Program-made: the position numbers and the translations under genes
Notes under the pieces: model-generated
Database searches by the model: none
Seen by the model: the letters and a program-made list of their open reading frames with translations, nothing else
Told to the model about the DNA's origin: nothing
Shown here: positions 13,716-52,122 of the stretch, in pieces
Position numbering within the stretch: the first letter of the stretch is position 1
How the letters are laid out: each line of letters begins with the position of its first letter
Source: Podarcis pityusensis
Taxonomy: Eukaryota
Strand: one strand, 5' to 3'
Length of the DNA stretch: 64,000 bases
NCBI GenBank assembly: GCA_964106645.2
Contig: OZ067039.1

Positions 13716-13925
13716 AGGTAAGTAGCTGTGTTAGTCTGACACAGTTGAAATATATATTAAAAAAAATTTAAAATGTCCAGTAGCACCTTAGAGACCAACT
13801 AAGTTTGATCTTGGTATAAGCTTTTGTGTGTATCTGAAGAAGTGTGCATGCACATGAAAGCTTATACCAAGAACAAACTTAGTTGGTCTCTAAGGTGCTA
13901 CTGGACAATTTTTTAATTTTTTTAT
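13716..13925. mobile_element. Penelope-like inverted terminal pair (hairpin)
   Basis: GTCCAGTAGCACCTTAGAGACCAACTAAGTTTG...CAAACTTAGTTGGTCTCTAAGGTGCTACTGGAC inverted repeat. Confidence 0.78.
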
Positions 13926-25444: not shown

Positions 25445-27603
25445 AGGTCCTTCCTGTAAAGATTTAAGATGGCATCCGGTCAGCTCTTTCATCAAGGCCT
25501 CAATAGTGTCACTAACGCTTTTCCTGGGTCTGATCTGGGTTGGGGAGGAATGCTTCAGGGGAGGGACTGCTATTTCCTAAGCTACTCTAAAATTTGAGAG
25601 CCTGTAACCCCACAAAAAATCATTTCTGGGTCTGTTTGTGACATTTTCCTCACCTCGGTCTTTCCTAGGAATTCATGCTCTTTTTGCACCATCCTATCTC
25701 CCCTGCTTTCTCTTGTACCCATCACAAAACAGTAAAGTCTGCCCTTGTGAGCAAACCTCTGCAGCTATTAATCTAAAATTTGGCAGCCCTTGCTCCCTCA
25801 GAAGGTTAACTGTGCCTGAAAATTGCATCTGATTTTATAAAAAGGGACAAAAAATATACCCAGTTTTAGATTTCTCCTGATAGTGAAAGTGGGAGTGGGA
25901 ACAGAGCTAATTCAGTCCTGACTATCAAGAAAATCTGAGAGAGACAGAGCTGCTCCAAAGCAGCATTGAATTGAATCCAGCAGAGTTCTTCTTATGTTCT
26001 TCTAAAATACCATATCTGTTATTTTTTTAAAATGGGGATAGCCTTACCTGCAATACAATTTTCCTATTAGAAAAATGGTGGGGAGGGTATGATATAAAAG
26101 AGCCCTTTTGGATCAGACCAAAGGTTCATCTAGTTCAGCATCCTGGCCACACAAAAAATACCTCTGAGCATCATTGCAAACTCCATCCAGACTCAGTCAA
26201 TGTTAGTCCAGGAAGCTCCTGATCTGAGTGGCAGCTGATTCTGATGAATGAAGATGCTGCCTTAGAGTCCTGCAGCCCACAGTCTTTTTTTTCCTCTCCC
26301 CCTTCCTTTTTTAATGAGTTTCTGTATCATCTTACTGTTTTGTGATATTTTGGTTGGGCTAATAAAGGTATTGCCCCAATATGGATGAAAGATTTCATAG
26401 TAAGTTTAACTTAGTAGATTTGTAGGGTGTCAGCATGCACATTTTGGGGATGGAAGCAGTGCAGTATTAAGTGGTACAATGTTCAAAGAGGGCAACTTAA
26501 TGGGAGACGATACAGCAGTGGTCTTTACTCCTTACAGATTTTGCATTAACTCTATGCCATTGTTAAACAGTTTTGACTCAAAAATGAGGATGTGAAAGTT
26601 TGAGGTCAAATTTCTGAAACATGGACCCACTCAAAAAGTCTCCAGATTTCACATTTTTATTTTAGCTCTCAACTACATGCTAAACCTTATCTAAAAGCTC
26701 ATCTGAGCCAGCGACTCTATGATTTGTATTTTGCACAGTGCAGAAGACACAAAGCACACACTGCTTGAATCATGGATCAAATGTAGTTGTTTAGTCAATG
26801 CTTGAGTTTATTTCCTCTGAATGGTGAGATGGTGACAACACACAACCTTATATCACTGGAATCAGGCTATTCCCTTGCTTTTCTTATAATGGGACCACTA
26901 TGTGGCCACAGGTGGTGTGTTACAGGATGGATACAATTTCTGAAACAGAAAGAGATTTTAAAGTTGGAGCAGTTGGAGCCAAGAGCCAGATCAAGGCCAG
27001 TGAGCGTCCATGCAGAGCTGAGATGAGTTCGAATTAACCTTTAAAAGAAAACAAAAAACTCAGGGGCTGTCCCTTGGAGGCAACTTTTTAAGAATCCCAG
27101 AAGTTTGCTTCTAAACTAGCGTCAGGTAATGAAAGCCCAATTATGGAAGAGGTGCACTAGAAGAGCAATGTGCAGGGAAGGAATGGCTTAAGCACATTAT
27201 GGGCACCCCACAGGTCTCTGCTCCAAGCCACCTCCTCCTTACTGCTTTTCCTTAGAAAAAGCAGCTATTGAGGTTTGGTTACAGAGATTTACTTCCAAGT
27301 AAATTTGCTTAGAATTAGTCTGTAAGTAATGGCTGCGTCCTCTGATTGGCAGGTGATGGGTGCTTCCAGAAGGCTGATTAGTGAGTGTCTGTTCTTGATT
27401 TGTTTGTGCAAAATTCTTATGAGATTGTACAACATCACCATCTAGTGGTTGTTACCTCCACACATTCTCACTTTTCTTATCAGACTTTTTGCAGTAAGAA
27501 AAATGATAGAGAACTGCATGGCATAACAAGCCCTGGATGCAAATATTGTGTGAACAATTAAGGATGGATGCTCAACAAACAACCAGTCTGGGAGTTCTCT
27601 GTG

Positions 27604-28045
27604 CAGTGGTGTAGTGGTTTGCTGGTGCCTGGGGGCCTGCACATGTGTGCACACAGCAGGGGGACAGAGTGCTGATAGTGAATGGAACCCACAATGCCAG
27701 CCCAGCCCTCACCACTGCTGCAACCGCCCCTCCCCGGAGCCAAGCGGGGCCACACACCACTTCCTGCCCATCTACGCAGGGAGCCTGGCCAGTCAATGCA
27801 GCCCCTGGTGGGCAAATCCCCCTGATGCCCACAGGCGAGGTGAGGAGGACACAACAGCCATGTGCCCTTTGATCCCAGTCTCTCAAAGCGTCCTTCTCAG
27901 GCCACCCTGCCAACCCTGCACCACTATGTGAGCAGCCTAGGGCTGGCAGGAAAGCATGAGAAGCCAAATGCACAGCACTGCACCCCCTTAAAAAATGTGC
28001 CCAGGGCCATTGTTCTGGCATCCCCCCCCCCATGCTATGCCACTG
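27604..28045. mobile_element. Degenerate hAT-like element
   Basis: Ends CAGTGGTGTAG... / ...CTATGCCACTG, GC-rich interior. Confidence 0.55.
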
Positions 28046-28049
28046 TTTC

Positions 28050-28394
28050 TATGTCCAAATTTGTTTTATTTCCCTCTTCCAAAAACATCATAAATTTCCA
28101 ATGCTTTCTCCTTTGAAGTGAACATGTAAAGTCTGACTTTAATTCCCTACCATTCAGGGCATGGATAGAATGAAATGTAGCATTGACATCCTCAAGCCAT
28201 TTTATGTCTATTGGGAAGAAATACAGGAATCACCTTACATTGTTATGCTTATTTGAAATTGGATAGTTCATACTTCCTCGTTTCTGATGGCGAAAAGGCC
28301 ACACTACTGATCTGCATTGATTAGCAGAGCTAGCTATGAATGAAAAGGAAATAATGGATTCGCCTGATACTTACTGAATGTAACTAGCCTCTAT
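28050..28394 (-). other. Gene A terminal exons: 20-nt exon 28394-28375 and 3' UTR exon 28283 to ~28050
   Basis: ttttaacacag / gtaagt micro-exon; 91-nt intron with a gctaat branch-like site and ccttttcgccatcag acceptor; AATAAA at 28070-28065. Confidence 0.55.
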
Positions 28395-28761
28395 CTGTGT
28401 TAAAACGGAAAGTGGAGCTTTTGTTAGCATTCCATGGTTAACACCCTGTGCCACTGCCTGTTCTTCCTTTAAAACAGTGGTACCACATGCACAAAACTGC
28501 TCACTGTAAACACAGCCCTGTCAAACCTACAGCGGTGCATTGTAGACCGACTTCATAAATTGAAGGCAAGTAGAGACGGGCTGAGACAATGCATGAAATG
28601 TCACCAGTTGTCATTAACCTCAACATTTTCAGGACTCTCCCCTTTGAGTATTTATGCCCTGGCAGCTATATCTACTTTAGATCCCCTGCCCTGCATCGCC
28701 TCTCTCCAACGCCCATCTCTTTTCATTTTCTCTTTACTCTCTTCTTAAACTCACCATTTTC

Positions 28762-28844
28762 TTACTTTCCCCAAAATGACAAAGTCCACTTGTTCTTCAT
28801 AGCACCAACTGATTCCAAACCTTTTGCAAAGATGTCAAACAAAG
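28762..28844 (-). CDS. Gene A helix exon: ALFDIFAKGLESVGAMKNKWTLSFWGK-stop
   Basis: Acceptor gcttttcttccag; only the phase-1 frame is open; alternative donors AA|gtaaga and ATG|gtgagt (exon end 28755). Confidence 0.75.
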
Positions 28845-28936
28845 CTGGAAGAAAAGCTTTCTGACGGCCATGGGTGGTCTCTGGATTGGGAGGAAAATGA
28901 GAGCTCGTGAGCCACACCTTCTCTGGTTTTTCTTTC

Positions 28937-29090
28937 TTAAGAACATAAGAAGAGCCTGCTGGATCCTGTTCTCCTAGTGACCAACCAGACACTCCTGGGC
29001 AGCTTGCAAGCAGGACACAAGCCTTCTTGCCCCTTGTGATTCCCAGCAACTGGCATTCTGAGGCAGGCTGCCTCTGATACTGGAGGCATT
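28937..29090 (-). mobile_element. L2-like LINE 3' tail (representative; others near 13207, 20690, 26100, 34975, 63370)
   Basis: TAAGAACATAAGAAGAGCCTGCTGGATC terminal motif. Confidence 0.6.
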
Positions 29091-30252
29091 CCTTCCTTTG
29101 TACCTCTGTGTGTGTGTGTCAGCTCCCCAGACAACAGATCAAATGTTACTAGCACTAATCCAAATGTTGCACTACTATTGGCACAATGTTATATGTTCAC
29201 ATTATATATGAGCACCGCTTCTGTGGGCTGGTCTTCCAATTCTGTAAAAAAAAAAAGTTCTAGCCCATTTGTTCATTGCTTTGTGTTATTCGCTGTGGAG
29301 ACATATGAAGCACTGGATTTCTGAAGCAATGTTCTGCTTTGGACCCAAGGCAACATGAATCATGCAGTGACCCATTTTTCAAAGTGTGATCAGAATGGAA
29401 TCTTGCCTGTCATACACATGGCCAACCATCACACCAAGTCACCAAATCATATTTATAACAGTGGGTACAAAGCAGATGGTAGCTGCAGCCAGTTGATTGG
29501 AAAGGAGACCGAGTCCTACCCTCCCCAAGCAGATGATGGGAAATATCAAAGTTCATTATGCAAATCCTCTTTCACTGCTATTGCTGGTGGACCTCAATGA
29601 GCAACGTCACCATGGTGCTGACTGTGCAATATTCTCATCTTGTGCAACCTGCCATGCACAAAGAGAACATACTTTCCCCATGCAGGATTGGGGTAACTTG
29701 TGCAGAACATGCTCATTGCACAGATATTCAGAATTAACCTCACTATGCTCAAAGGGAGTTATTCCAGGTTAGAGTCATAGCATTGCAGCCTAAGAACAAT
29801 TCACAAAGCATGAACTAGCAACTTGTTTTGGGGAGATGGTGTGCTATTATAAAATCAAAAAGTCAAAATGGATCCCCATGATAACATATTTCCAGAATAC
29901 AAATACCATAGCCAGCCATACAGATCCATGAACACAGCACTAATAAAGTAGGAATGGTGAATAACATCCATCATCCTGAGCAGTAGCCATGCTAGCTGGG
30001 ACTGCTGGGAGTTGGAGTGCACCAACATCTGGAGGGCCACTGGTTCCCCATCGCTGTCATAAAAGTAAATCGCTCCACAGGCTTATGATACACATTAGTT
30101 GTAGGAGGAGGGGAAGTTGTACCAGAAGTGGAGGGAGAGTTGTTATCTGGGAAAGGGAAAGCAAATCATTCCCCTATCACCATGTTGCTGTGGATAAGTT
30201 GTGTGCTATGATTCAGATACTTGCTTAAATTGCTGGACCAAGAAGAACTCAC

Positions 30253-30285
30253 CGTCACTGGCGGTGCTCGCTTCTGCAGAAATCG
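30253..30285 (-). CDS. Gene A exon 3c: TISAEASTASD (older paralogous copy)
   Basis: 33-nt phase-1 exon, cttcttatttacag / gtgagt; flanks are similar to those of 3a/3b. Confidence 0.75.
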
Positions 30286-30459
30286 CTGTAAATAAGAAGG
30301 CATGGCAACATGAAACAGAATTCCTCTAATACCCAGACACAGAGGGCAAAACTTCAACCATTCCTGCAAGAATTCTTCAGTTCTGAAGAATACTATTCCA
30401 TTTCCCCCAACTTCCAATAAAAGAAACACGCAATTATTTTACGCCCACAGCTGAGTTTG

Positions 30460-30926
30460 CAGCTAAGTGTTTAGAATGGCAGATGTTATGCAGTATGCTA
30501 GAAAGCACCGCCATTCGACTTCCAAAACATTCGAAAACCAAAGCGTGGCTTTTGATTGGCTGCAGGAAGCTGCTGCAGCCAGTCAGAAGCCACAGAAGCC
30601 CTGTTGGATGTTCAGCTTCCAAAAATAGTTCGCAAATCAGAACAGTCACTTCCAGGTTTGCAATGTTTGGGAGCCAAAACATTTGACTCAAAAAGGCGTT
30701 TGAAAACCAAGGTACAACTGTAATTCCTCAGGCTCTTAAGAACTGTTACTTAGAGCACATTTGTAAGCATATACAGTCGTGCCTTGGAAGTTGAACGCCT
30801 TGTGAGTCAAATGTTTTGGCTCCTGAATGTCACAAACCCAGAAGTGGCTGTTCCAGTCTGAGAACTATTTTTGGAAGCCACACTTTGGTTTTTGAATGTT
30901 TTGGAAGTTGAATGGACTTCCGGAAC
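30460..30926. mobile_element. Two degenerate Tigger-like MITE fragments
   Basis: ...CCAAGGTACAACTG-TA and TA-CAGTCGTGCCTTGG... ends with mutually inverted internal sequence. Confidence 0.65.
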
Positions 30927-31633
30927 TGTGAAGGAAAAGCTGAAGGTTTTTTACACACAAGATATTAGGCAATCCATGAATCATTGTTCTCTCCACAATT
31001 GTATTTAATTAAAGTAAAACATCATTTTGAGAACTATCTATATGATTTACCAATCTGTTCACTTAGGAAGGCATTTGTGGCTCTGAGTTTTCAGACAATG
31101 CCCTCAGAGTATTTAGATGGTTGCTGCAGGAAAATTCTAGTAGAAAAGAGACTTTCTCTACGTGGCACTCAAGCAACAGAAGACCTATACTGTTAAGTAC
31201 TTACTGTCCTATGTATTCTGAGCTGAAACCTAAGTACATTTGTGAACTATTGTGTAAGATGCCTGATGTGGACTATCAATTGAAGGTCACATATTTGCCG
31301 TCTGGCTCTGATAAGTTTGAGACAGACAACATGGCGAGATTCATTGTTGCATCCCCAAAACTAAGAATGTGCATTAAAGACAATATGGCAAACTATAAAA
31401 TCTGATCAATGATGTAATATAGAAATGTATTTGTGTAGGTCTGCATTTCAAAGTATAGATGTATAAATTGGTTACCACTGTATTTAACAGTGTATCTATG
31501 CATATTCTGCACAATATCCATAGAATACTTATATTCCCTTTTTGTTTAAAATAACCAGGATGGTTGCAACAACAAATAAACTTTGACTTCAACTTTGAGA
31601 TACTTTGAAATTGCTGGACCAAGAATAACTCAC

Positions 31634-31666
31634 TGTCACTGGTGGTGCTCACTCCTGCAGAATCTG
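31634..31666 (-). CDS. Gene A exon 3b: TDSAGVSTTSD (identical copy of 3a)
   Basis: 33-nt phase-1 exon, same splice sites as 3a. Confidence 0.72.
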
Positions 31667-31802
31667 CTGTGGATAAGAGGACATGGCAGTATGAAACAGA
31701 ATTCCTCCAATACACAGAATAATACACAGTTCAATATTTGAATTTTTCCTGCAAAAAGTATTCTTTAATTTCCTCCCAACCTCCATTAAATGGCCAGTGT
31801 CA

Positions 31803-33194
31803 AAGAAAAATGGAATCCAAAATTGATTTTCAAAGATGAGGAGGGAAGATACATAGCAGTAGAAATTACAGCACAAGGGGGAAAATACTTGTTATTGGGA
31901 ATTTATGCACCTAATGATGGCAAGGCAGAATTCTTTAAGAATTTGGAAACAAGGCTTATGGATCATTTGGATTACAAATTAATTCCAATGGGAGATTTGA
32001 ATGGAGTTGCATCTACTTTAATGGATAGGAGACAGAGACAAAAAATACTGAATGCCGGCAGATTACCTAAGATTTTTTATATATATAACTGACAAATTTG
32101 ATCTGTCAGACATATGGAGAGTCAGAAATCTAACTGAAATCTAACTGAAAAAGACTTCACATTTTTTCAGATACAAATCAATCATTTTTGAGAATCGACT
32201 ATTTATAGATATCCAGAGAAATTTCTCACCTTCTCACCCCTTGCCTTTTCCTGTAAGACCTATTACAGTCGTTAAGAGTCGTCAGCAGGCTCATCTCAGC
32301 TATCTGCCAATCTCCCATTCCCACCACCCTTCTGAGTAATACCCCTCCCCATATAGAAGGATCTGGCAACTTCTGTTTCAGTGTATCTGAAGAAGTGTGC
32401 TTGCACACGAAAGCTCATACAAAGAACTAACTTAGTTGGTCTTAAAGGTGCTACTGGAAGGATTTTTTTTATTTTGACTATGGCAGACCAACACGGCTAC
32501 CTATCTGTAACTGTGTCCCAAGGTGAAAGACTTCTGGGGAAAGATTCATAATGAATTGAAAAAAATGTTGAAATATTCATTTATTAAGAAACCAGAAGCC
32601 TTTATACTTGGAATAATAGGTTTGGAATTGCCCAAGAAAGATGTCAGATTATTTTTGTATGCCACAACTGCAGCTAGAATTTTGTTGGCCAAAAATTGGA
32701 AACTACAAGAAGTACCAACAGTGGAGGAATGGCAGATGAAGATGATGGACTTTTGGGAGCTAGCTGACCTGACAGGAAGAGTCCGCGACCAGAAGGATGA
32801 GGAATACCAAGAGGAATGGAAGAAATTAAAAGATTATTTAGCTAAATATGTTAAGAAAATTTAAATAGAATGACTTGCGAGTATCAGGTAGGCCTAGGAT
32901 TTAAATATGTGATGTTCTAGAATACTATGTTAAAAGTTAAAAAGAAAAGAAAGAAAGATGTAAATTGGTTAAGTAAATTTTATGTGAAATTAGTTTAGGA
33001 AAACTGCTACAATGATTTATATGGAAACTCAGCCGGGGGGATTTGAGGAAGTCACCTAACAATGTTTACAAAAGTGGAACTATTACAGTTAGGGTATATG
33101 TTTGTTTGTTTGTTTGATGGTTTCTTTTTATGTTTGTTGATAAGTTTGTTATAAATGTGGAAAACTAATTTAAAAAATTGAAGGGGGGAAAAAA
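31803..33194 (+). mobile_element. L1/Tx1-type LINE, internally deleted (endonuclease piece + ORF2 C-terminus + 3' UTR/A tail)
   Basis: DEEGRY...IYAPN...MGDLN endonuclease motifs; CPKVKDFW...TTAARILLAKNWK C-terminus; Penelope piece at the junction. Confidence 0.85.
32225..32512 (+). mobile_element. Penelope-like element terminus
   Basis: TCTGAAGAAGTGTGC..GCACACGAAAGCTCATAC...TTAGTTGGTCTTAAAGGTGCTACTGGA terminal motif. Confidence 0.75.
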
Positions 33195-33274
33195 CAGGAT
33201 GGTTGCAACAACAAATAAACTTTGACTTCGACTTTGAGATACTTCCTGAAATTGCTGGACCAAGAATAACTCAC

Positions 33275-33307
33275 TGTCACTGGTGGTGCTCACTCCTGCA
33301 GAATCTG
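33275..33307 (-). CDS. Gene A exon 3a: ADSAGVSTTSD
   Basis: 33-nt phase-1 exon, ctcttatccacag / gtgagt. Confidence 0.75.
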
Positions 33308-33606
33308 CTGTGGATAAGAGGACATGGCAGTATGAAACAGAATTCCTCCAAAACACAGAACAATACACAGTTCAATATTTGAATCTATCCTGCAAAAAGT
33401 ATTCTTTAATTTCCTCCCAACCTCCATTAAATGGCCAGTGTCATACACTAGAGAGTGCCATCTGTCTGGAAAATTCTACATGTGCAGGATTTTTATTACA
33501 TATTATGTGGATGGACTAGATCTATCACAGTCACCATGAGCTGCACTTTCCAGTCACTGATCTGTGCTTTAAAGCTCTGTGTTGAAGTGGTTTGGGTTTT
33601 TTTATC

Positions 33607-33727
33607 CCAGTGCTTTCCCCAGGAAAACCCACATTTAGCAATGAATTAGAACAAATAATGGCAAACCAGATTGCTGTTTGCTCCAATTCAGTGGTAAAGT
33701 GCAGGTTTTCCTGGGGAAAGCACTGGG
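33607..33727. mobile_element. Small palindromic MITE in gene A intron 2
   Basis: CCCAGTGCTTTCCCCAGGAAAACC...GGTTTTCCTGGGGAAAGCACTGGG inverted repeat. Confidence 0.7.
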
Positions 33728-34230
33728 ACAAAAAGAACCCCTCTCAGACACAGAACTCTGGATGAGCCTCATGACAGCAGGCCAAGGTGCAACACAGAAA
33801 ACCACATTAAGTAAGAGGGCAATGTGTGTACTAACCAAGTTGGACTGGGGCAAATGTCTTTAAGATCAATGCATGAGATCTCTTTTCAGAGAACATGAAC
33901 TACAAACCTGTCAGGATTTCTCTCTCCATCTCTCTCTCTCTCACACACAGACAGGTGGTTGTATAAATTTATAAATTTGCAAAGCCACAATTTACTAGTC
34001 AACCCTGTCTCACCCAAAATGAAAGCCATCAAAGAAGAAGTCTTCAAGCTTAGCATTAATAAAACATAAAGGCAAAATCTCCTTCTGATCCTCTGATGTT
34101 CACCACTTGTAGGAATAGTCTGTGAAGATATATTAAGCATTTAGGGTGGGGGTGATGTTGTAGGTTGGGAGCACCATCTGCCTGGGATTTTTTTTAGCAC
34201 TGTCTGATTTAAATACAATGCTAGATGTGT

Positions 34231-34232
<2 letters not shown>

Positions 34233-34262
<30 letters not shown>
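34233..34262. repeat. (AC)n microsatellite
   Basis: Direct reading. Confidence 0.97.
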
Positions 34263-34264
<2 letters not shown>

Positions 34265-34794
34265 CTTTATTCAGATGGACAGTGAACGTCATGCTTAAAT
34301 CAGCCAACACCAACTTCTGCATGCCAGGTATCTGTAGCCTGAGTGCCTACATGATGGCATCCTGATGCTTCTCATGGACTGTGTAGCAGTGACCCATATT
34401 CCACAGGCAGCTGGCCATGTGGGATCCTACTCAAGTTTTCCAAACAGATGTATCCTCATGTATAAATCAGGCTTGGCAGATGTGCCACCCTTTCTTATGT
34501 GAATCGGGACTTCTTTTGTTTCCCCTCTCACTTTAGAGTGGCTACTGTGCAGGCAGTCTGATGATTATAAAGTGAGTCTGCTATGACTGCCTATGCAGAA
34601 AATAAAGAATAACTCTGCCTGGATGACTCTATGGTGATGATCTAGATATACAAGTGCCCTAGAATCTGGATCCGCCATGGCATTCTGCTGCCCTCTTAAC
34701 GCAGTTACTACAGTCACATTGTCCCAAGGAATATTCTACTGGGCAAATTATTCAAAAGGCTCAAGTGCACATGCTTAAAATGTTCAACACTTAC

Positions 34795-34836
34795 CAGTGC
34801 TGGGAGTCAACTCAGTGCTGGGAGGAGGTGATGTCT
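34795..34836 (-). CDS. Gene A exon 2: ETSPPPSTELTPST (mucin-like)
   Basis: 42-nt symmetric phase-1 exon, ttctgtcctcattctag / gtaagt. Confidence 0.78.
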
Positions 34837-35476
34837 CTAGAATGAGGACAGAAGATCTCACAACTATTATCCTGAATAATGCTAAATGCTCACTTGTTGA
34901 AACTAGCATTTTCCTCTGTGTCATTCAAACCTTTGCATGCCTAGCTGATGTGAACACAGCTCATTGAAATAAGAAGAATTCTGCTGGATCTTACCAAAGG
35001 TCCATCTAGTCCAACATCCTTTTTCTAACTTTGGCCAGCCAGTGCTTCCAAGAAGTCCATAAACAAACAAGAAAGGCCTTAACCCTCTTCTGTAGTTTAT
35101 GGCCAGTGTGCAGTCCTCAGCTGTAAACTACTTATGCTCCTGGAAGTTCTATTTTCTTATCATTGGTAACTTCATAGATGTCAGCAGATGTATCCTCATT
35201 GAATTTGCCTAAACCAGGGATGCGGCCCTTCATATATGTTGCACTATGGCTCCTGTCATTCATCTCTATACTAGCTGAGGCTGATGGGGATTGCTGTCCA
35301 AAAACATCTGGAGGAGTACAGGTTCCCCATCACTGTCTGAAACCATTATTGGAGCCACCTTAGCTTGTGCATCATAGCTATCACTTGGGGGGGGTATGAA
35401 TTCCATCCTTTATTTATGGAATTCGCCCCAAGGAGGAGGGAAACACACTGGGCCATTGAGAATTACATACCTCCAG

Positions 35477-37159
35477 GACTTCCGGGTTGGCGCCATCGCC
35501 GAATGGCGGACTCCCTCTGAGCTCCGGAGGGAGCCTGCTCGGCAGGGGCTGGGTCCTACCGCACCGGCGATGCGGGGACCCTTAAAAACCACGGCCACGG
35601 AGGCCGTGGACATGGAGACTCGGCTGGCACCGCTAGCGCCCTCCCGACTCGTGAAGGAGCCTTTTTAAAGGCTACGGATCGGGTGCCGGGGAGAAGCGTG
35701 GTGCTTTGAGTCCTCTGCTATCCCTGCCGAGCGCAGCCGCATGCCATCCGGCGGAGAGCGCTGACTTCTTCCATTGAAAATTCGGACTTCTTAACAACAA
35801 CCCGTGAGTAATTTGGAAACCGGGTTTAAAAGGAGAAAAAAAAAAGAATTTTTTTTTCGGATTGGACACGAGCGGGGGGGGATCCAAAAAGGAAGTCAGT
35901 CCCCTCCCCTATTGTAAACCTTCCAAAACAAGGACGGGGAAACCAAGGTCCAAAAAGATGTGTATTGCTGATTAAAACTAAGAATTCCACGATGGGGAAC
36001 TATAAGAACTGTGCTGGAGGAAGAATCGAGGGAGAAGAAACGTAACCCCCCCCCCCTGGGAACCGGGGTGATTGAAGAGAGAGCCTGGTGAAAAGAGTCG
36101 GAGATTTTGACAGCTGTCAAAGTAGCTGTCAAAGTCGGAAAGCAGAGAGGATTTTATTATGCGAACTTTCCTGGTTAAATTTGTTACAATTTGCTATAAC
36201 TCGTTAAAACTTGGATACAAAATGGCGAAATCATGGATAACAATCGGACTTTTGGACTAGAGAAAACAAAGTTACAACAATCCCCCTAGAGGAGTTTTGG
36301 GACATTACAAAGATGGTCGCAAGTGGAAAAATACCATTGGAATTTTACAGGACTGGTTATCTTCTGGGAAAGCTGCAAAACGGAAATAATATTTTGTCTA
36401 CAGGGTGTTTAGCTAAAGGAGACAATAGAATTTTCTATTGAAGAAAGGAAGGGACTGAACGCAAGTTTTCGTTCCTGAATAATAATAATCCCTGTAGAGT
36501 TACTAAGCTTCTGAATTAGAACGTTTCAGCAGCGGAACAAGAGGAAACTGGACTACAACTTGGAAAGAACAATGGGGGGAGTTTTATTAAAGATTTGAAG
36601 TTAAATGTTTTAAAAAATAATTATAAAAAGAAAAAGCTAGCAAGGAATTGGGGGAAATAGGTGATTTATGGACTTTAAGAATTCCAGGCAGATAATATGG
36701 TTTGGTGGTCAGGGGGAAATTAAACCGGGGACAGGGGGGGGGAGAACTAAAATCCAAAGGCTTGTCAACTTTTTCTTCTGAATGAGCTTTTTTTTCATCT
36801 ATTATACTTTTTATTTCTTATTTTTTATATTTCTATTGTGTGGGGTGTCTTTATCATTAAAAAAAAGGGAAATTGTGGAATGAAAATGGGGTGGGCCCTG
36901 GGGAGAGAATTTTTGTCTTTTATTAAGGGTATTGATGAGGAGTGTATAAATTTTAAATTCGAATAATGGTCTAAACAAATTAAGTTTCAAATTAGAACTG
37001 AGAGCTTGTGGAGCCAACAATATGAAAGGGGAATACGGTAGGGGTGGGGGAAGGGGGGAGTCCCGGAAAGTGGATGTATGAAAATAAGGCTTTGAATGTA
37101 CTTTAATCTTTACTTTCCGTATTTTTGAAAATCTTAATAAATATCATTTAAAAAAAAGA
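35477..37159 (+). mobile_element. Non-autonomous L1-type retroposon (1.7 kb) with 19-bp TSD
   Basis: Starts GACTTCCGG with a CpG-rich head, ends AATAAA..A-tail; TSD GAGAATTACATACCTCCAG at 35458-35476 and 37160-37178; no long ORF. Confidence 0.8.
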
Positions 37160-37172
37160 GAGAATTACATAC

Positions 37173-37221
37173 CTCCAGACACTAGAGCGCAAACCAGCAG
37201 GAGTCCCCATATCATCTTCAT
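37173..37221 (-). CDS. Gene A exon 1: signal peptide MKMIWGLLLVCALVSG
   Basis: ACCATGA start context (in-frame upstream ATG at 37227), hydrophobic core, small residues at -3/-1, phase-1 donor GAG|gtatgt; CATAAG box at 37313-37308. Confidence 0.8.
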
Positions 37222-37850
37222 GGTCATGAATGACTTGGGAGGTTTTCAGGAATTCAGGGCAGCCTAAAGAAGCCGAGGAATGTTGTGGTCTGATCCACTC
37301 TCACTGGCTTATGAAGGAAGGAAACGCCAATGAAAATGGTTGGGTAGTGGGGAGTGGAATCGTGGAGGAAATCAGGATCCTGGTGATGAAACAATTGGAC
37401 ATATAAATTGGACAGATAACAATTGGATAAATATGCAAACAGAAGAATTAAGATGGCACACAGCACTTGTGGCACATGAGAATAGACACAATGTTAATTG
37501 GTCTTCTAGATAAAGGGAGAGGCAAGGAAATTAATTGCTGTACCAAGGCTTTCTAATCTGTTTACTCAGAAAAGGGATTTTGGCTTTCTTCTTTCTGCCT
37601 CTGGCAAATCCTGGCTGAGGCGTGGACGGTGGTATCTTCTCCTGATGCACCTCACTTTAGGCTTCTCAAAGGGTGTGAAAGCAAATGTATGGCTTCTAGA
37701 CAACGTGGCACAAATGTGGTTTGATGTTTGTGGAGAATTCAGGCTCCTTGAAAATATCGTATTTCACTTAAAGGAAAAATATGTCTAACTCCAATACCTG
37801 CAAATAGATGTTTGAAAATGTAAAAAAGAAAAAGGAAAAAAGGAAAAAAA

Positions 37851-42946: not shown

Positions 42947-45900
42947 AGAATCGCTGGAGGATTGCAGCACTGAATTCCACCCACAGAATTTGTCATTCAT
43001 GCTTTACCCTTAAAACTTCCTTATACAATTTATTTTATTTCATTAAATTTACATACTGCTTGATTGTGAAACAACCAACCACCTCAAAGCAGTTTATAAA
43101 AAGAATAAACCATAAAATTATTGATAAAAACAGTTAATAACAACTATTCAAAACATTCAGAGGAGAAAATAAAACTAGAGATAAACACACACCATCATTC
43201 TAATAGGGCAGGCTTGTCCACATAAGAGCACATTCCTTGATTTATGCAAAACCAGACCAACCCAGGCCACAGCCAGGAATAATATTTGAGCCTCTTCGGT
43301 TAGAAGGCTAATCACCCGATCAATGTCCTACTTGCTAGGCTCTTTCTCAGTTTGTGGTAGGAGGGTAATTTATTAATGCTTGGGCCATTCACATATAAGA
43401 TAAATAAGATAGATAAATACAATGCAAAATCCAAGTCAAAGTATTGCATAAAGTAACATTACTGCCTAGAATCATACATAAAACATCTTCAAAATACTAT
43501 GTAAATCACATGTAGCATGTATGAAATTTACAAACTGAAATTCAATACAGATAAAAAACATTAATTATTAAAATATATTATGCTTAAATAAGCACATCCT
43601 CCAAGCAGTCGACTGCCATCTCCTCAACAACTCCTGCCCAGGTTTCCATTGCTGCTAAAAAGAGAGACCTTGTGTCCAACAGAAGGTAGAAAATGTTTTG
43701 TGGAATGGTACTGGATGAGTAAGAACAGATCCCAGAAATTTGGTGCTTGGTTCAGAATAAAGTGAACCAAAGAACAAATAGTGAAGCAGTTCCTCAACTT
43801 CTGGGGCCCCACAAATACACAAGCAGAGCGCCAAGGGAGTATGAGAGTGCTGACAATCATAGCTGTGAGCATTGTTTGGAAACAAAGGGCTGCAAATGCT
43901 TGCCTAAGCTTTGGAAATGTGAGCTTTGCAAGGTAAGCAGCCATTTGGTGGTCCAATTTGTAAAGTCTATATTAATTCAAAAATTTAGAATTATTAATGT
44001 TCTGTCTGGCAAGGACATTATATGTATTTTCCACCATGGAAAATATATAGAATGTCCTTGCCAGAGAAGACATTAATAATTCTAAATAATTCTAAATTTT
44101 CCAAATTCAGAGCAGAAAAATGATTGAATGGAGTAGGATATGAATAAAGCACCTTCCAATATTTTAAGTTCCAACTTTTGCAGTTTGATACCTGCTCCAA
44201 ACATAACTTGGGGAATACCCTACCAGGAGACACTTTTATGATTCACCAGTATGGATGGGGAAACGGATGGGAGATCGAATGGAGGGGGAATCTACCTCTG
44301 CCCTGACCAAAGCTGAAGGAGTGCCAGGTGGAAGTCTTAACAATTCCCCAGAAATGTATTTTGGAGGGCCTAGTTTAGCCCATCCTCAAATAGCCATCCT
44401 CAGACAGCCACACCGTACAGGATCTGAGCAATAACTTTACTTTGAAATATTTTCAGGGCTAGCACAACCAGATCTAAGAATTGCCCCAATTGTTCTCATA
44501 GCCACTGCTCTGATAGCTTCTAACTGGATGCCAAGATTCTTAAATACTTGGCATTGTTCAATTTGGTGACCATTAATAGACCATTAATAGACCAGTTCCT
44601 CAATTAGGAACAATAAACAGTTATCCGTATTAGTGGTGGCCAGTTTATAATACCACAATAGTAGGGTTGGAGTTTTTTGGCCAAAGTTCCTAAGCTTTTT
44701 TCTTTTTCTTTTTTAGCAAAATTGCAAAAAAATAATAATGCTGTTTTAAGCTATTTTTATGGAAAGTGGGCAAAAGCAGCACTGCCAACATTGGCTGCCA
44801 TACATCCGGATTTTACAGGACATTTTCCTGATTTCCATCCAGACATTGCTAGAGGCAGTGGTATTCCAGATATGTCCAGGAAATTCCAGACGTATGGCAA
44901 CCCTATACAACAGGCTTCTGTCGATCAAATCAAAGACTGATGCTAAGTCGACAAAGGCAACAAGTAAGTGTTTGGTAGGTCCAGCAGTTGCTTATTGGGC
45001 TAAGAAATGCAAGACAGGCAGTGGTCAATAGTGCTTTCCCTTTTCCTAAAACCAGCCCGTTCAGGAAGGATAATGTGGTTAATAGATTTCCAGTCGTCCA
45101 ATTTCTTTAGCAAATATTTACTATATAGTTTAGGATCAGATCAAATGGTACATTGTTTGGTTTTGTAGGTTCAGGTGTCTATGCCAATTCCTTTAAAAAT
45201 AGAAATTAGTTTGTTTCATGTGTTCACAGTCGAATAATGAAGAATACATTTTAATAATTTAAAATTTAAAAATTACATGACATTTCAGAAATGGTGTGGA
45301 ACATTTCCCCTGTGGAAATTGCTCTTTTTACTTTCAGTTCCGTAAGTCACATGTTGATGCGACAGCTATCCCCACATGCCTTTTTTTTTTTTAGTGTTTA
45401 ATTAGACAATCTCTTGGATCAAGATTTGAGCTAGATGACAAAAGAAATTGTTGGAGGAAACACACTGTCTTGAGCAAGCCTCAAAAGCCATTGAGCCAAG
45501 ACAGGAAGTCCTGGCTAAAAGCCAGCGTGCCCCACGACCCCTACACCAATTTGCGCGCTTCCCAGTGTGAGCAATACTTTATGGGGAACACTGAGCAATT
45601 TCCCACAGGTACTTCATCATTGTTTTAAGGCCACAAACCATCCGCTACACTCCATGTTTCCTTCTTGCCAGCTTCATTGGTTCTGCTCTAGTTATTTGCC
45701 TTTTAATCAAAGTTTGCCTATTATATAAAGTCATCTGCCTTTTAATTTTTTTAAAATGCCAAAATGGAGTAGGGTCTTGGGGCCACAAATATCTTCTGTT
45801 ATGCTAGATACAGGCCATGGGTTAGCCAACCCTGCTTTACAAGAATAAAGGCAAGTCACTACAATTTAGCACCCACAGTGCACTTGTGGCTCTGAAGCAG

Positions 45901-45985: not shown

Positions 45986-46680
45986 CTACCTCAACTCTGT
46001 CAAGATGTCCATACCGTTCTCCCCTCTGGTGGGTGAGTCCCTTTCTGCTGACCACTCCCCAAGGGATTCTTCACTGCTTTCCTCTGGAGATGAAACCACT
46101 TCTAGAGAATGGTGTCCATAACAGTACAGTTCTTGATGGCCAAGGTGGTCTGGCCCCTCCATGCTTTCTCCGCAGTGAGAAAGCCACGGTTCCAACTTTG
46201 AATGAGATGTAGCTTGAGGGCAGTAGTGGGAAGAAATCACAGGAGTCAGCTCCACTATGGTAGACTCTGAAGAGTCACTTCCCATTCTGCCATGATGAAA
46301 GGGGACTTCAGGGAGCGCTGTGTGAGTCTCATCCTTCACGCCTTCCACATCAAAGTGGAACTTGTCTCTGCGGGCTTTTTCCATCACTTCCCACACTACC
46401 TGTTCCAGACGACTCATAGAAGATGGCACAGCAGAAGGTCCTTGAGGCCCTCCTCGGGCGGAAGTGTACAAGCACATCGTGGAAATGGCTTTTTGCAAAC
46501 GCTTGAGAGGAGGCAGAGACTCTGGCTGGGAAGGAACATTCCAAGAATCTGGGATGTCTGGGAAAGCCCAGAACAAGTGGGCAGGGGAAATCTTTTGGAT
46601 GGGAGTCTTAGACACATAAGAGTAGAGGCAGAAGAAAGCATCAGCCGTTACAGCCAGAGTCTGGACTTGCTTGAACCGAC
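45986..46680 (-). CDS. TESPA1: TESPA1 coding exon 8 (SRFKQVQTLAVTADAFFCLYSYVSKTP...), to TAG
   Basis: Acceptor ctttcacag; conserved RFKQVQTLAVTADAFFCLYSYVSKTP. Summed CDS is 1362 nt = 453 aa + stop. A weak donor (AG|gtagca, 45990) overlaps the stop, so a further exon cannot be excluded. Confidence 0.88.
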
Positions 46681-47076
46681 CTGTGAAAGGAAGGATAGAA
46701 AGTGTCAGAGGAAAACCAAGAGACCCTAGCTTCCAGCTCTTCCAGGTCACATCTGTATGGCAGGGACTGTACACACACCTGAAAACTAGGCCTGGTTTCA
46801 TTTTCCTGGGTTCTAGTTTTTTTTTTCTGTCTTCCTCTTGCCTAAGCAAAGGCTTTTGTTTGGTCCTGTCTTCTGCTCCTGGTCCCAGTTCTACCTGCTT
46901 TCCTATGTTCCATCAAGAACAGAGGTCCTTTCCCATCACCTGCTACCTGAGCTCTTTTCAGATTTCAACCAAAGATGCCAAGGGTTGAACATGGGAGCTT
47001 CTCTACATGCTCTGAGCCTCACCCTTTGATATCACAGTCCCAGAACTGACAGCCATGAAATGCTTGTGGCACTTAC

Positions 47077-47285
47077 TTGCTAACATCAAGCAAGGATCCT
47101 CCATCTCTAACCGTTGCACCTGGGCTCTGAGGAAGAGCTGGAAATCAATGCCCTCAGCTTGGGAGGGAACGGAGAAGAACCGAGATGGGATCCAAGATGC
47201 AGCCTGTGTCTCCTCTTGTATGAAGCCCAGGTTGCACAAGATGCTCTCAGCATCAGCTTCATAGAGATCCAGCACCTCAGAGATG
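47077..47285 (-). CDS. TESPA1: TESPA1 coding exon 7, KRAP/IP3R-binding domain
   Basis: SISEVLDLYEADAESILCNLGF...IPSRFF...PSQAEGIDFQLFLRAQVQRLEMEDPCLMLA; cctag / gtaagt. Confidence 0.95.
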
Positions 47286-47757
47286 CTAGGCAGAGAAGAT
47301 AAGAGTGTGAATGCAGAAGTATCCCAACTGATTACTGAACCATTTTCAGGTCATAGCCCCACAAATACACCACTAGGTATGTCCGCAAGCCCCTTTCCTT
47401 CAGAGAATAACGGGCAGCATCTGTGGGATTTCCTCACCCCCAATTTATCTTCCTCACAGCCTTGTGTGGTGAAAGAGGGTGCTTGCAATAATATTCATGG
47501 TGGTGTCTGGTAGAGAAAGCAAACACAGAGCCCTCTGTATGTTGTTGGACCATAATTCCCATCAGCCCCAGCCTGCTCAACTAACCGTCAGGGATGGCGG
47601 GAGCTGTGGTCCATGACATCCAGAGGGCACCAGGTCAGCTGCCTCCAATGTACAGACCAGAGGCTAGGTATCTCTGCTCCAATCACTGCTGGTTTGTTAG
47701 TGGTGTAGGTAGATCTTTAAGCCAGTCCAAGTCCTACACAATACAATCCATGCTTAC

Positions 47758-47856
47758 CTGGAGCTGGTCTTGTTAGTGCTGCCTGAGAAGGCACTGGAAG
47801 TCATGCTGTGATCCAGATTGAGATGTTGGGAAGGCCAGAATGTATGTTTTTGGGAC
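47758..47856 (-). CDS. TESPA1: TESPA1 coding exon 6 (SQKHTFWPSQHLNLDHSMTSSAFSGSTNKTSS)
   Basis: 99 nt, NAGNAG acceptor cacagcag, donor gtaagc; TNKTSSS motif. Confidence 0.9.
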
Positions 47857-48168
47857 CTGCTGTGGAAGAAGAGACAGTGAAGAGACACATCTGCATGCAT
47901 ACCCACATCCCTTTTGGTGTGCATGTAGGAAGACAAAAAGGGAGGGCAAGCTGGCAGTCACAGCCAGCTGCACACTTGCACAAGACTGATAGTGTGACAA
48001 CACCCTACAATGTTATTAGACAAATATGCAGCCAGTATCTCATTTCAGAAATAAAACTAGAAATCTCAGCCCCGCCCTGCCCCCCCAAAACAAATTTAAA
48101 TTCTGGATTTCAGATTTCTCCAAACTTTGGCTCTAGCAACGCTAACCTCCTTAACTCTTGTTTCTCAC

Positions 48169-48205
48169 CTAGGCTCAGCTCTGTCTCTGTCCAGTAGCAC
48201 CATTG
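48169..48205 (-). CDS. TESPA1: TESPA1 coding exon 5 (AMVLLDRDRAEP)
   Basis: 37 nt, ttcttctttccag / gtgaga; phase 1 to 2 keeps the frame. Confidence 0.82.
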
Positions 48206-48383
48206 CTGGAAAGAAGAAAAGAAAGGTCTCTCATGAGCAAAGGATACATTGCATTCCTACGAAGAGAGCTGACGGCCAAGGAGCATATTGGCAGAGTTGC
48301 ACCATCAAATTAGCATTTTGCCACCCATCCATGGGCCATCTGGAAAGAAGGCTTGCTCACACCCAACAATCCTCATCACTTAC

Positions 48384-48437
48384 CTTCTGCTCCCAGGCTA
48401 AGGTCATCTTCAAAGCTGGTTCTGTTGCTGCAGGATC
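48384..48437 (-). CDS. TESPA1: TESPA1 coding exon 4 (GSCSNRTSFEDDLSLGAE)
   Basis: 54 nt, cctgtag / gtaagt; SFEDDLxLGAE motif. Confidence 0.92.
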
Positions 48438-48967
48438 CTACAGGATAACACAAATACATAGTCACTCAGAGCAAGCATCCACAGGTGGAAAAGGGACTGG
48501 GTGAGACCAAAAGGCTGAGTGGCTTTCTCTATGCAGTTTTATTATGGACATGCCACAACACAGCTCTACATGGGCAGGGCTGTGTGAAGGCTACAGTTCC
48601 ACAGAAGAACAGGAAATCCAAACAGTGTAGAATTCAGCTTCCTAAAATGCTCAGATTTTTCTTTCTTTCTAATCCCTGTGAAAATAGGCTTGTAAGTTTG
48701 CAAGCAATGCCTGCTGAAATCTCAGAAACCTAATGAGTTTCTGAATAAGATTTCCAGCGAAGGGGGGAGCAGTTTAATGCCTTGTATACCCCCTTGCTTT
48801 CCCCCTCAAATTAGTATGTATTATTGTTTAATTAACTTATGAATCACTTTACAAAAGCATTGTAAGGCGAATTACAAGCAAACAATAAAAATAACTAAAG
48901 TAGGTTTTGAAACAATACCAGAAACAACAGCGGCTGCCTTTCAATATTTTTTAGAGAAAACATTGAT

Positions 48968-50020
48968 GACTTCCGGTGCTTTCTGCCTTAATGGGTTCAG
49001 CTCCCACATTAGCGGAGATCATTTGCAGAGAAAAACAAAGATGATTTTGAGGGTAATTGTCCTTGCAAGTTCCCCCCAGGGCTCGGGGGGACTGAACTTC
49101 ACCCGCAGACCGTTTTGGCTCTCGCTCCGGCATGGAATCTGGGAGGCAGGAAGATGCTGGGTGCCAAAGCACTTTGCCTATCGGTAACTCCCCGACACAG
49201 CCATTAAGATGCAGAGGCTCTTCTATTTAATAGGGTGAAATTGACTCTAATTTACAGACGTGTGCAGGATGGATGGGACAAGATTATAAACTGGCAAGTG
49301 AATCAGCTACTGAGTCGCAATGTTTAGAACTGGTAAGATTTCCTTTGTAGAAAAATATGGTATGTGAGGGGGGGAGCCTTTTATATATACCATGTTTGCT
49401 ACATAAATAATTCGGCAAACCTCCCCCTAAATGCCAACAAACTGATAAAAAGCAAGAGGAGAAAAAGAGAGTGGGGTTATATTTATGCATTAATATGAAA
49501 ATATAACTGTGTGAGAACATTGAAATGATTTAAAGCACTGGACTTCCACTTATCACAATTTGGACTATGGGCCGAAATTACATGGGAAAAGAGGAAGAGA
49601 AAGAGCAAAAAAGTGTAAGTAGAGATGCTGCGTACAACATGATCAGAAGAGGAAAAATGAAGAAACAAATGGAAAAATAAACTTCTCACACAGGGAATTT
49701 ACGGGATATAGAACTCCTTCTGCAGAAATAAAATTTATTAAATGTGTTAATACGAATGGAAGTCCAGAACTCTGTAGTTGTTGATAACAGACTACGATCA
49801 GGACTGAATGTAATTGGATTAATCAAGATTTCGGAAGCAGGAAGAAATAATAACTTTGCACTTTGAAACCCAGCACACGGGAAGTCACACAAATTGTATA
49901 ATTGGCCTTATAATTTATATATATTTGGATATGAATTGTAATTTGACATTGATAAAATGTGGCTGCTATTGGACTTTAGTAATTGAAAATTAATTGATTT
50001 ATTTTTTTTTTGAAAAATAG
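48968..50020 (+). mobile_element. Second GACTTCCGG-headed non-autonomous retroposon (older)
   Basis: Same 5' motif and CpG head; imperfect TSD AAAACATTGAT / AAAACATGGAT. Confidence 0.6.
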
Positions 50021-50708
50021 AAAAAACATGGATTGGTTGATTGATTGATTATATTTCTATGTTGCTTTTCATTCAAATGAATCCCAATACAGCTTACAAA
50101 CAATAAAAAAAAGAACATCACAAATACAGCATAAATTATATAGAATAATTAACAAATCATCAATAAAAACAAGTACAACCTATAAAACACTCTTAAAGCA
50201 TCAACTAAAAAATGAGCTAAACATCACAATTAAAGCAAAAGTAATATTATATGATTAACAAACCAATACAGCATTTATAATCTATAAAATAATATCAACA
50301 GCATTAACAAAATAGCAACCCAAAAATAAGCTAAGAACTGTTAAGGTCATACACACATTCTCCACACCCCTAGGGCTCATAATCTTTCACTCTGTTCAGC
50401 TCAATAACATACACATGACGCCCTTCTAAAGGTTCATGAATGAGGCTGTGTACATAACCATACATTAAAGTACATTTGAAGCACACACACCCAAGAACCC
50501 TGGGAACTATATTTTACCTATCAGAGAGCTACAATTCCCAGCACCCTTTAATAAACTACATTTCCTGGGACTTTTTGTTTGGGTGTGCACACGCTCAAAA
50601 TGTGCTTTAAATGTATGGTGTGTGTGTGCAGTCCAAACTTTAGCCTACCTTACTTCATGTTTGAGAAGGCAGACCGAGCAAATAACAGAAATTGCAGAAA
50701 TCACTTAC

Positions 50709-50761
50709 CAGCATAGGCACCCGGAGCAGAGATGCTCTCTGAGAAGGGGTCCAGTGAAGAG
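50709..50761 (-). CDS. TESPA1: TESPA1 coding exon 3 (SSSLDPFSESISAPGAYA)
   Basis: 53 nt, ctttcag / gtaagt; phase 2 to 1 links exons 2 and 4 in frame. Confidence 0.8.
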
Positions 50762-51054
50762 CTGAAAGCCAGAATCAAGAGCTGCATCATTACAGCTATA
50801 GGAGTTCCTAAACCCTTTTGCCATTTCTCTCCTAGGACCTAGCCGGAACATCACAGACAATTAAGTCCCACTCAGCAAACAGTGGCACCACCAGGGCTGG
50901 TGCTGCATTAGGCAGAGCAAGGCAGCTGCCTCAGGCAGCAGATGCAAAGCTGCAGGGGACAGATAGAGCTCTGAGTGCCGCATGGCTACCCCGGGACCCC
51001 TACACTAGCCTCCTGTCCTCTAGTGCAGTGGAGGATACCGCCCATTCACTAGTA

Positions 51055-51349
51055 CAGTGGTGCCTCACAAGACGAAATTAATCCGTTCCGCAAGTCTCTT
51101 CGTCTTGCGGTTTTTTCGTCTTGCGAAGCATGGCTATTAGCGGCTTAGCGGCTTAGCGGCTATTAACGGCTTAGCGGCTTAGCGGCTTTAAGAAAAAGGA
51201 AACAAACTCGCAAGAACTCGCAAGACGTTTCGTCTTGCGAAGCAAGCCCATAGGGAAATTCGTCTTGTGGAACGACTCAAAAAACGGAAAACTCTTTCGT
51301 CTAGCGAGTTTTTCGTCTTGCGAGGCATTCGTCTTGCGGGGCACCACTG
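51055..51349. mobile_element. Tc1/mariner (Tigger/pogo-like) MITE
   Basis: TIRs CAGTGGTGCCTCACAAGACGAA / TTCGTCTTGCGGGGCACCACTG, TA TSDs, internal GCGGCTTA repeats. Confidence 0.9.
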
Positions 51350-51556
51350 TATTGAAGGAAAATCCTAGTCCAATTGGCTTCCGTATGTTCCTTGGGAGAG
51401 AGCAACATCTTGTCCTTCACCTCAGGCAGCAAAATGTCTTGAACTGGCCCTGATTGCCTTAAGTGCTAACCTCCAGTTTGCAGATCTGAAGCCCTACAGT
51501 CCAGGAAATCCACAAATGACAATGCCAGTACTGTGTGTGGAGTGAAACTCTACACC

Positions 51557-51692
51557 AGGTGTGAGGAACCTTTAGTCTTCCAGATATTGCTGAACTACAA
51601 CTCCCATCAGGCCCAGTAAACATGGCCAATGGCCAGGGATGGTGGGAGTTGTAGTTCAGCAACATCTGAAGGGCCAAAGGTTCCCCTTACCT
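51557..51692. mobile_element. Short hAT MITE (representative; related copies near 1965, 4305, 14820, 29960, 35215, 38965, 47530, 51880, 54325)
   Basis: GGAACCTT..CCAGATATTGCTGAACTACAACTCCCATC...GGGAGTTGTAGTTCAGCAACATCTG..AGGTTCC palindrome. Confidence 0.8.
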
Positions 51693-52122
51693 GCTCCAGA
51701 CAGTCACTCTATCCTGAGTTCAAAAGTTCTAAAAACCTGGGTGGGACCAAGGAAGAGCCCCCCTTTGGAAGCCACACTTCCATAATGCAACAGTTACTGA
51801 AATGAAAAAGGAACGTTAGAAATCAAGGCAGAAGCTCTTGCATTATCCCCAGTAAAACTAGTGCAATGAACTGAGTGTGATTAGGAATCTATAGTTCTCC
51901 AGATGTTGCTGTACCACAACTCCCATCATCTTTGACCATTAGCTATGCTGGCTGGGGCTGATGGGAGTTTGAGCCCAAGAACCACATGTTCTTTATCCCT
52001 GTTGCAAAATATGTGCATATCTAAAAATGCTCCTGATTCTTGAAATCAAAATATAACTTCTGACAATGTCATGATCCTTTCGGGTAGTGACCTCCTCCAT
52101 GACCTCTCTCAGGTAGACTCAC

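Follow-up and report, generated by a model that had tools for sequence, protein, structure and literature searches.

How did a 33-nt coding exon come to stand twice in one lizard gene, each time inside a near-identical block of about 250 nt and with DNA of an L1 retrotransposon between the two? The question is raised by a stretch of 64,000 nt from Podarcis pityusensis (assembly GCA_964106645.2, contig OZ067039.1), here called the window and numbered from its first letter. The host gene lies on the minus strand and is predicted to encode a secreted mucin-like protein. We read the two blocks as an unusually long target-site duplication (TSD) left by one germline L1 insertion, with a probability of roughly 70%.

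The duplicated block and the L1 DNA between its copies

The left copy of the block (31,556 to 31,802, plus strand), the putative 5' TSD, measures 247 nt, and the right copy (33,195 to 33,443, plus strand), the putative 3' TSD, measures 249 nt. The two are 97.2% identical (E value, 8e-119) and are set apart by 5 substitutions and one 2-nt indel, giving 7 differing columns; the near-identical direct repeats with about seven differences noticed in a preliminary description of this DNA were thus confirmed. That description had also placed a complete and identical 33-nt exon with both splice sites in each copy, and splice and sequence comparisons agreed. The exons occupy positions 31,634 to 31,666 in the left copy and 33,275 to 33,307 in the right copy, both on the minus strand. 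Each consists of 11 Ser/Thr-rich codons in phase 1-1 and is bounded by an AG acceptor and a GT donor (31,666 to 31,634 and, for the right-hand exon, which is predicted, 33,307 to 33,275). The duplicated exon is therefore symmetric, its 33 nt being a multiple of 3, and both splice sites are intact in both copies. That the two exons are identical does not point to selection, since this has a chance of 0.40 to 0.46.

The 1,392 nt between the copies are made up of two L1 pieces and a nested high-copy repeat. Similarity to L1 open reading frame 2 (ORF2) begins at 31,799 to 31,803, where the left copy ends, and the 3' part of the L1 finishes directly before the right copy. The first piece (31,803 to 32,215, plus strand; right boundary approximate) belongs to the ORF2 endonuclease and is 5' truncated at about residue 73; it is 64% identical to residues 73 to 166 of P0001, an L1 ORF2 of Podarcis muralis, in a frame that is open for 97 codons and then broken. 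The second piece (32,514 to 33,194, plus strand) comprises the ORF2 C terminus, which is open for 116 codons and 60% identical to P0001 residues 1128 to 1236, followed by the 3' untranslated region (UTR) and a decayed purine/A tail. The 3' UTR ends in six G and then six A against the right copy, a short and decayed A-tail. P0001 was the sole match among 35 candidates, and on the strength of these similarities the inserted DNA is assigned to the L1 clade. Between the two pieces lies the nested very high-copy repeat of about 300 nt (32,216 to 32,513; left boundary approximate), which we take to be Penelope-like. It has an 87% match at 13,828 to 13,920 and occupies the place of about 2.8 kb of lost ORF2, including the reverse transcriptase (RT) domain. 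The L1/Tx1 fragment flanked by the repeats had been recognized before; it is L1 and the repeats do abut both of its ends, but it is broken into two pieces and its tail amounts to only six A.

The polarity is that expected of a long TSD, with the L1 3' tail next to the right copy and the truncated 5' end next to the left one. A short TSD was not found at the L1 ends, where the longest shared word is an A-rich one of 6 nt. An L1 endonuclease-type site, TT|AAAA, is present at 31,546 to 31,551 (plus strand; cut at 31,547/31,548), and counted from this cut the left copy measures 255 nt. The earlier claim that the left copy begins just after such a site holds as to the site itself, but the cut lies 8 nt before the start of the strict repeat and is not flush with it. 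In the local sequence (25,800 to 37,500), 1.4% of positions lie 0 to 8 nt after a TT|AAAA-type site, and 4.9% do so for a relaxed motif.

The junctions in other samples and relatives

We compared contigs from 4 of the 24 listed sequencing runs, representing four organisms: X2 (organism A), X3 (B), X20 (C), and X10 (D). The contig results rest on the longest and best-supported records listed. X2 comes from organism A but from another sample and study than the best-matching source. X20 is a run guessed to be RNA (tissue not stated), its spliced nature being known solely from its joint. At the right copy and at two further exons of the gene (the 42-nt exon and the first exon, described below), X20 has no contig cover, and neither X3 nor X10 has any at 31,591, so that these places give no evidence either way.

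Contigs of organisms A, B, and D run without a break from the upstream flank into the left copy (records 13, 29, and 6), and the right copy is likewise joined to the downstream flank in the same three organisms (records 14, 30, and 8). Since both connections are continuous, the order flank-block-flank is ancestral. We also considered that two L1s, one on each side of the block, had undergone unequal crossing-over, but rejected this because neither copy has an L1 piece on its outer side.

Assembly artefacts are known to produce near-identical direct repeats on both sides of a repeat, and the window does contain a gap elsewhere (175 N); an L1-bearing and an L1-free haplotype could have been merged into a false duplication. 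In X2, however, the last letter of one contig (31,243 to 31,802) is also that of the block, and the next contig begins at 33,414, 30 nt before the right copy ends, which is the fork to be expected of a block with two different continuations. The X2 block contig mixes letters of the two copies, being of the right-copy type at the 5' diagnostic sites and of the left-copy type at four 3' sites. Its depth is 32.3 against 32.4 expected for two collapsed copies (seven neighbors, 27.3 ± 1.8), and a heterozygous state fits this value less sharply. The copies are 2.0% apart, yet X2 differs from the window at only 3 of 6,982 letters (seven of the eight listed records; record 13 left out). In organism C, record 22 of X20 bridges the junction of block and L1 with 169 nt on one side and 313 nt on the other. 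Because the second sample of A forks at the block end and organism C spans the junction, misassembly is very unlikely indeed, and the duplication, whose reality had been left to such a check, is real.

Over the insert itself, the summed contig depth in X2 is about 10 times that of the flanks across the endonuclease piece, 360 times across the L1 tail, and about 19,000 times across the nested repeat, depths of this kind giving no copy number. The gradient appears to be that of a 5'-truncated L1 family. At 31,881, within the L1, the letter of the window is present in X2 at a depth of 23 out of 523.6.

As the block/L1 junction is common to A and C, the insertion is older than their split. The left and right copies differ at 5 of 247 positions, or 2.0% (95% range, 0.7 to 4.7), while the divergence from A in the listed records is 2.4% for C (67/2,771), 2.6% for D (153/5,821), and 0.74% for B (40/5,408; record 30 left out). 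Judged by these divergences, the duplication dates to about the A/C split, as it should for a duplication that arose together with the shared L1; its apparent age might be lowered by gene conversion.

Copy number seems to vary among the relatives, with B likely having one intact exon copy and C likely one more. In organism B, record 30 crosses position 33,443 without a fork and at a depth of 9.83, where two copies would lead one to expect 12.2 (neighbors, 9.9 ± 2.1). All five contigs over 31,879 are without the letter of the window, yet a depth of 8.3 carries it at 32,173. B thus likely has one intact block, which would have come about when the two repeats recombined or through a deletion at a later time. 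As C is more distant from A than B is, B cannot represent a preinsertion allele unless the site stayed polymorphic. In organism D, record 8 starts at 33,391, which is a fork within the block, and an L1-like piece matching 31,849 to 32,132 (depth, 11.9) does not bridge the junction. Two contigs of D cover the upstream flank at 31,427, with a summed depth of 38.2 against about 19 for single-copy sequence (region 31,244 to 31,583, X10), which suggests that D carries a further duplication of flank and exon.

The RNA of organism C points the same way. Record 22 leaves its fit to the genome exactly at the donor of the left exon (31,634), having kept the upstream intron, and continues with 63 unplaced letters. 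Given a 30-letter overlap rule and the merge marked by record 21, these letters would consist of one further 33-nt exon and 30 nt of an older paralogous exon, their assignment being one by length. This leaves 33 letters beyond what the genome of A offers. In C, the exon adjacent to the L1 is therefore probably spliced onward, to yet another copy of the exon. For organism A, an in-frame gain of 11 residues is predicted.

The older paralog was overlooked in the preliminary account, which had two copies only; the two young copies stand, but a third block is present. It lies at 30,212 to 30,421 (plus strand; aligned part, 30,212 to 30,378), is 78% identical to the young copies, and contains a third 33-nt exon (30,285 to 30,253, minus strand) that differs from the young exons at 7 of 33 nt. 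Record 21 of X20 ends 30 nt into this exon. There is no L1 next to the older block, so the exon was duplicated once earlier by other means, and the exon array grew at least twice. When polarized on the older block, both young copies carry derived changes. The older paralog aligns onward, weakly, with the downstream flank (a score reached by 1% of 300 shuffles), while its onward alignment with the L1 has a score reached by 11% of shuffles and thus is no alignment.

Positions 30,969 to 31,600 hold a decayed ORF and an AATAAA with a short-repeat tail, which may, as an unconfirmed guess, be the 3' end of an older long interspersed nuclear element (LINE); such a tail would make up the first 45 nt of the duplicated block. 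The ORF in question (31,067 to 31,402) had no match in Pfam or Atlas, and the only match was a weak one of 46 nt at 43,863 to 43,908.

A probable long target-site duplication and its alternatives

If the blocks are a long TSD, the L1 endonuclease would have nicked the target at TT|AAAA (31,547/31,548), where reverse transcription would have been primed, and the second strand would have been opened about 250 nt away (31,802) instead of at a distance of 7 to 20 nt. A 5'-truncated cDNA of about 4 kb, reaching into the endonuclease domain, would have been joined at 31,802, and the fill-in step would have produced a second block, exon and both splice sites included. The arrival of the high-copy repeat in the L1 and the loss of about 2.8 kb of ORF2 would have come afterwards. 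The insertion would have taken place before the A/C split, and the long repeats would be likely to recombine, which would explain the single intact block of B. In this sequence of events we infer the insertion chemistry, the single origin of both L1 pieces, and the equal age of the L1 and the repeats.

A long TSD is the best reading because the polarity is correct, TT|AAAA lies 8 nt off, no short TSD is present, and the divergence of the repeats (2.0%) is about that between A and C (2.4%). The open L1 frames, of 97 and 116 codons, would also fit a young copy.

Several points weigh against it. The strict repeat starts 8 nt past the cut, a gap that two small changes in the right copy would close; no more than six A, preceded by six G, form the A-tail; and derivation of both L1 pieces from one insertion is itself presumed. 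At 247 to 255 bp, compared with the usual 5 to 30 bp, the putative TSD would belong to the rare long-TSD class (PMC5223499, accessible text), and TSDs of more than 100 bp made up less than 10% of the events in HeLa cells described there. Moreover, the gene duplicates this exon without L1 (at 30,212, and probably in a further copy in C and D), so that a prior duplication is not far-fetched. Finally, the single-block signals of B are mixed, its distance to A (0.74%) is smaller than that of C, and no empty allele was seen in an outgroup.

The possibility of a prior duplication leads to the main rival account, in which the repeats are older than the L1. An earlier tandem duplication of flank and block would have been followed by an L1 that hit the TT|AAAA of the second unit, its 5' end being joined to the end of the first block with deletion of what lay between, and the result would be a pseudo-TSD. 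The endonuclease site, the position of the tail, and the missing short TSD are explained equally well in this way, the exon had already been duplicated earlier in the gene, and the two contigs of D (38.2 versus about 19 at 31,427) and the 33 extra letters in the RNA of C are in keeping with it. Target-site deletions by LINEs have been published (PMC2666801, as far as its accessible text goes), and the pseudo-TSD model has been discussed for long HERV-K repeats in the available part of PMC5488345. However, two rare events are required, with three prior units to fit C; judged by their divergence, the repeats do not predate the species split, and the L1 frames look young. No relative with two block copies but no L1 was found among the three other organisms, within the records listed. 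We consider this account unlikely.

A different origin would be repair of a break or a stalled fork, in which template switching copied a genomic L1 fragment that was already deleted inside and re-entered 247 bp upstream, with no target-primed reverse transcription (TPRT) at all. The internal deletion of the L1 and its poor A-tail are as such a history would leave them, and the human CDKL5 case considered below is itself chimeric and was partly ascribed to strand annealing (PMC8087252, accessible text). A templated patch should nevertheless end anywhere, whereas here the ends coincide with the natural 3' end of an L1 and with a left copy at an endonuclease site, which makes this origin quite improbable.

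The same gene holds a second L1-type insertion (35,458 to 37,178, plus strand), whose element (35,477 to 37,159) is bounded by a perfect 19-bp TSD (35,458 to 35,476 and 37,160 to 37,178). TSDs of normal length thus occur in this gene too, and this one copies the splice donor of the first exon. The second element has no ORF2 match to P0001 and looks like a 5' UTR, ORF1, and an A-tail; its summed contig depth in organism A far exceeds that in B or D, which suggests a young nonautonomous family amplified in A.

With exon duplication recurrent in the gene and L1-type elements having struck it twice, an ordinary L1 could by chance have landed at the junction of a preexisting head-to-tail duplication of 247 bp. 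The chance of such a landing is about 1.8% even within the duplicated blocks, the junction is not an endonuclease site, and no short TSD is present; we regard this coincidence as highly improbable. The giant staggered cut or repair during TPRT that had originally been proposed fares well in part: a long TSD has the best support of all readings, and the other samples exclude misassembly, but the prior tandem duplication remains as its main rival.

Long TSDs of this kind have counterparts. In the accessible text of PMC8087252, a de novo 5'-truncated L1 in human CDKL5 is described with a 119-bp TSD that duplicates exon 3, both copies being present in mRNA by reverse transcription-PCR. The likeness to the lizard locus extends to the 5' truncation, the endonuclease consensus site, and a long TSD, putative in the lizard, that encloses a complete small exon together with its two splice sites. 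The CDKL5 exon of that report, however, has 35 nt and is frameshifting, and the event is pathogenic, de novo, and mosaic, whereas the lizard exon has 33 nt and is symmetric, with inclusion of both copies in mRNA predicted. In length, the putative lizard TSD is roughly double that of CDKL5; with repeats 2% apart, the insertion is old, and its junction with the block recurs in a related species.

L1 TSDs of 217, 242, 275, and 277 bp and larger are described in the available text of PMC5223499 for cultured, mostly repair-deficient cells, together with the prediction that long TSDs can duplicate exons and can disappear when their repeats recombine. Similarly, the zebrafish element ZfL2-2 produced a 1,228-bp TSD in 1 of 25 insertions in DT40 cells (PMC2666801, accessible part). 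Both papers, in the text available, concern engineered elements in somatic cells and give no natural inherited example. HERV-K (HML-2) has TSDs of 250 bp and 111 bp in the human germ line (PMC5488345, accessible text). In this case, too, a retroelement in the germ line is surrounded by repeats of that size, and they come with the same caveats, namely, a pseudo-TSD and empty alleles re-made by recombination; unlike the element in the lizard, HERV-K uses integrase chemistry and not TPRT, and exon duplication is not mentioned in the accessible text of that paper.

Since TSDs of this size and exon duplication within an L1 TSD have both been published (PMC5223499 and PMC8087252, accessible texts), the mechanism is less surprising than was first held. 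A literature search that left subscription journals mostly outside its reach found no inherited in-frame exon duplication in an L1 TSD. On the best reading, then, the mechanism is known; the uncommon part is that a symmetric exon was copied within a long L1 TSD and that the result has been kept in more than one species.

The host gene, its neighborhood, and the meaning of the duplication

The host gene (26,677 to 37,227, minus strand) is predicted to encode a secreted mucin-like protein of about 104 residues with an S/T-rich middle. Its first coding exon (37,173 to 37,227), predicted from hydrophobicity and a splice scan, is signal-peptide-like, has 18 codons, and ends in phase 1. A predicted 42-nt exon with strong splice scores (34,795 to 34,836) is Ser/Thr/Pro-rich and in phase 1-1. 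The 3' exons are defined by RNA: record 17 of X20 (organism C; depth, 200) joins position 26,938 to 28,754 over 1,815 nt, one letter off GT-AG. It gives a last coding exon of 126 nt (28,755 to 28,880), with 39 codons to the stop, and a terminal noncoding exon (26,677 to 26,939), with AATAAA at 26,812 and 26,661; all four exons are on the minus strand. Candidate exons at 26,063 and 21,850 were dropped once these 3' exons had been defined. An exon scan of the gene revealed no membrane-spanning exon, and the peptide encoded at the end of the spliced 3' exons is short and soluble. The mucin-like stalk that had been envisaged was therefore not borne out, and a secreted mucin-like protein fits better.

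The gene is flanked by an exon with a KRAP_IP3R_bind domain (47,077 to 47,284; E value, 6e-28) and by a Neuro_bHLH gene (2,982 to 4,046; Pfam). These neighbors are presumably TESPA1 and NEUROD4, names taken from the domains and the synteny known to us. The NeuroD-family gene (2,979 to 4,046) and the exons of the KRAP_IP3R_bind-domain gene (about 45,986 to 52,165) are both on the minus strand. Human NEUROD4 and TESPA1 are head to head, and the order may differ here.

The last coding exon, with 40 residues, had no homologue in Pfam, a word search, phmmer, or Atlas, although so short a query is a weak test. A C-terminal amphipathic helix is a feature of the GLYCAM1, LACRT, DCD, and MUCL1 proteins; in the corresponding test of the lizard sequence, the best hydrophobic moment was matched by about 20% of 5,000 shuffles. 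In mammals, TESPA1 borders the genes for these four proteins and for marsupial MM1, which evolve fast and have little mutual similarity (PMC5054531, accessible text). Like the members of that cluster, the lizard gene encodes a predicted short secreted S/T-rich chain beside KRAP_IP3R_bind-domain and NeuroD-family genes. No sequence similarity to the GLYCAM1, LACRT, DCD, and MUCL1 cluster was found, and orthology would follow from neighborhood and layout alone. Nor did a literature search turn up dermcidin or lacritin in any of the 15 general reptile papers listed. We treat the kinship with the gland proteins as a lead only and do not assign the gene as a member of the cluster. The gene itself is a side find, predicted to encode a secreted mucin-like protein and lying in the genomic neighborhood that in mammals houses the milk, tear, and sweat protein cluster.

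Other mobile elements were also seen in the window. A young long terminal repeat (LTR) retrotransposon (57,957 to 63,272), with 296-nt repeats that are 99% identical and with protease and RT domains (Pfam), is inserted at the end of a CR1-type LINE (about 55,600 to 57,950), and its 3' part is echoed at 55,488 to 55,599, beside the assembly gap. Another 3' fragment of an L1 ORF2 (7,122 to 8,873) holds a nested CR1-type piece (about 8,010 to 8,489) that is 98.5% identical to positions 57,470 to 57,944.

As to function, the long repeats might form a heritable, LTR-like recombination cassette that tunes exon number across a lizard radiation (one intact copy in B, two in A, three in C), all copies being spliced in frame and changing the glycosylated length of a reptile counterpart of GLYCAM1, lacritin, dermcidin, or MUCL1. 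We put this forward tentatively and regard it as rather doubtful.

If the two blocks are indeed an L1 TSD, the locus would be a natural, in-frame case millions of years old, the age following from the 2% divergence at a rate of 1 to 2 per billion per year. It would exemplify a route of exon gain overlooked by TSD-finding programs, which usually seek short repeats. With four close relatives seemingly differing in copy number, the persistence and loss of such repeats would be directly testable in these lizards.

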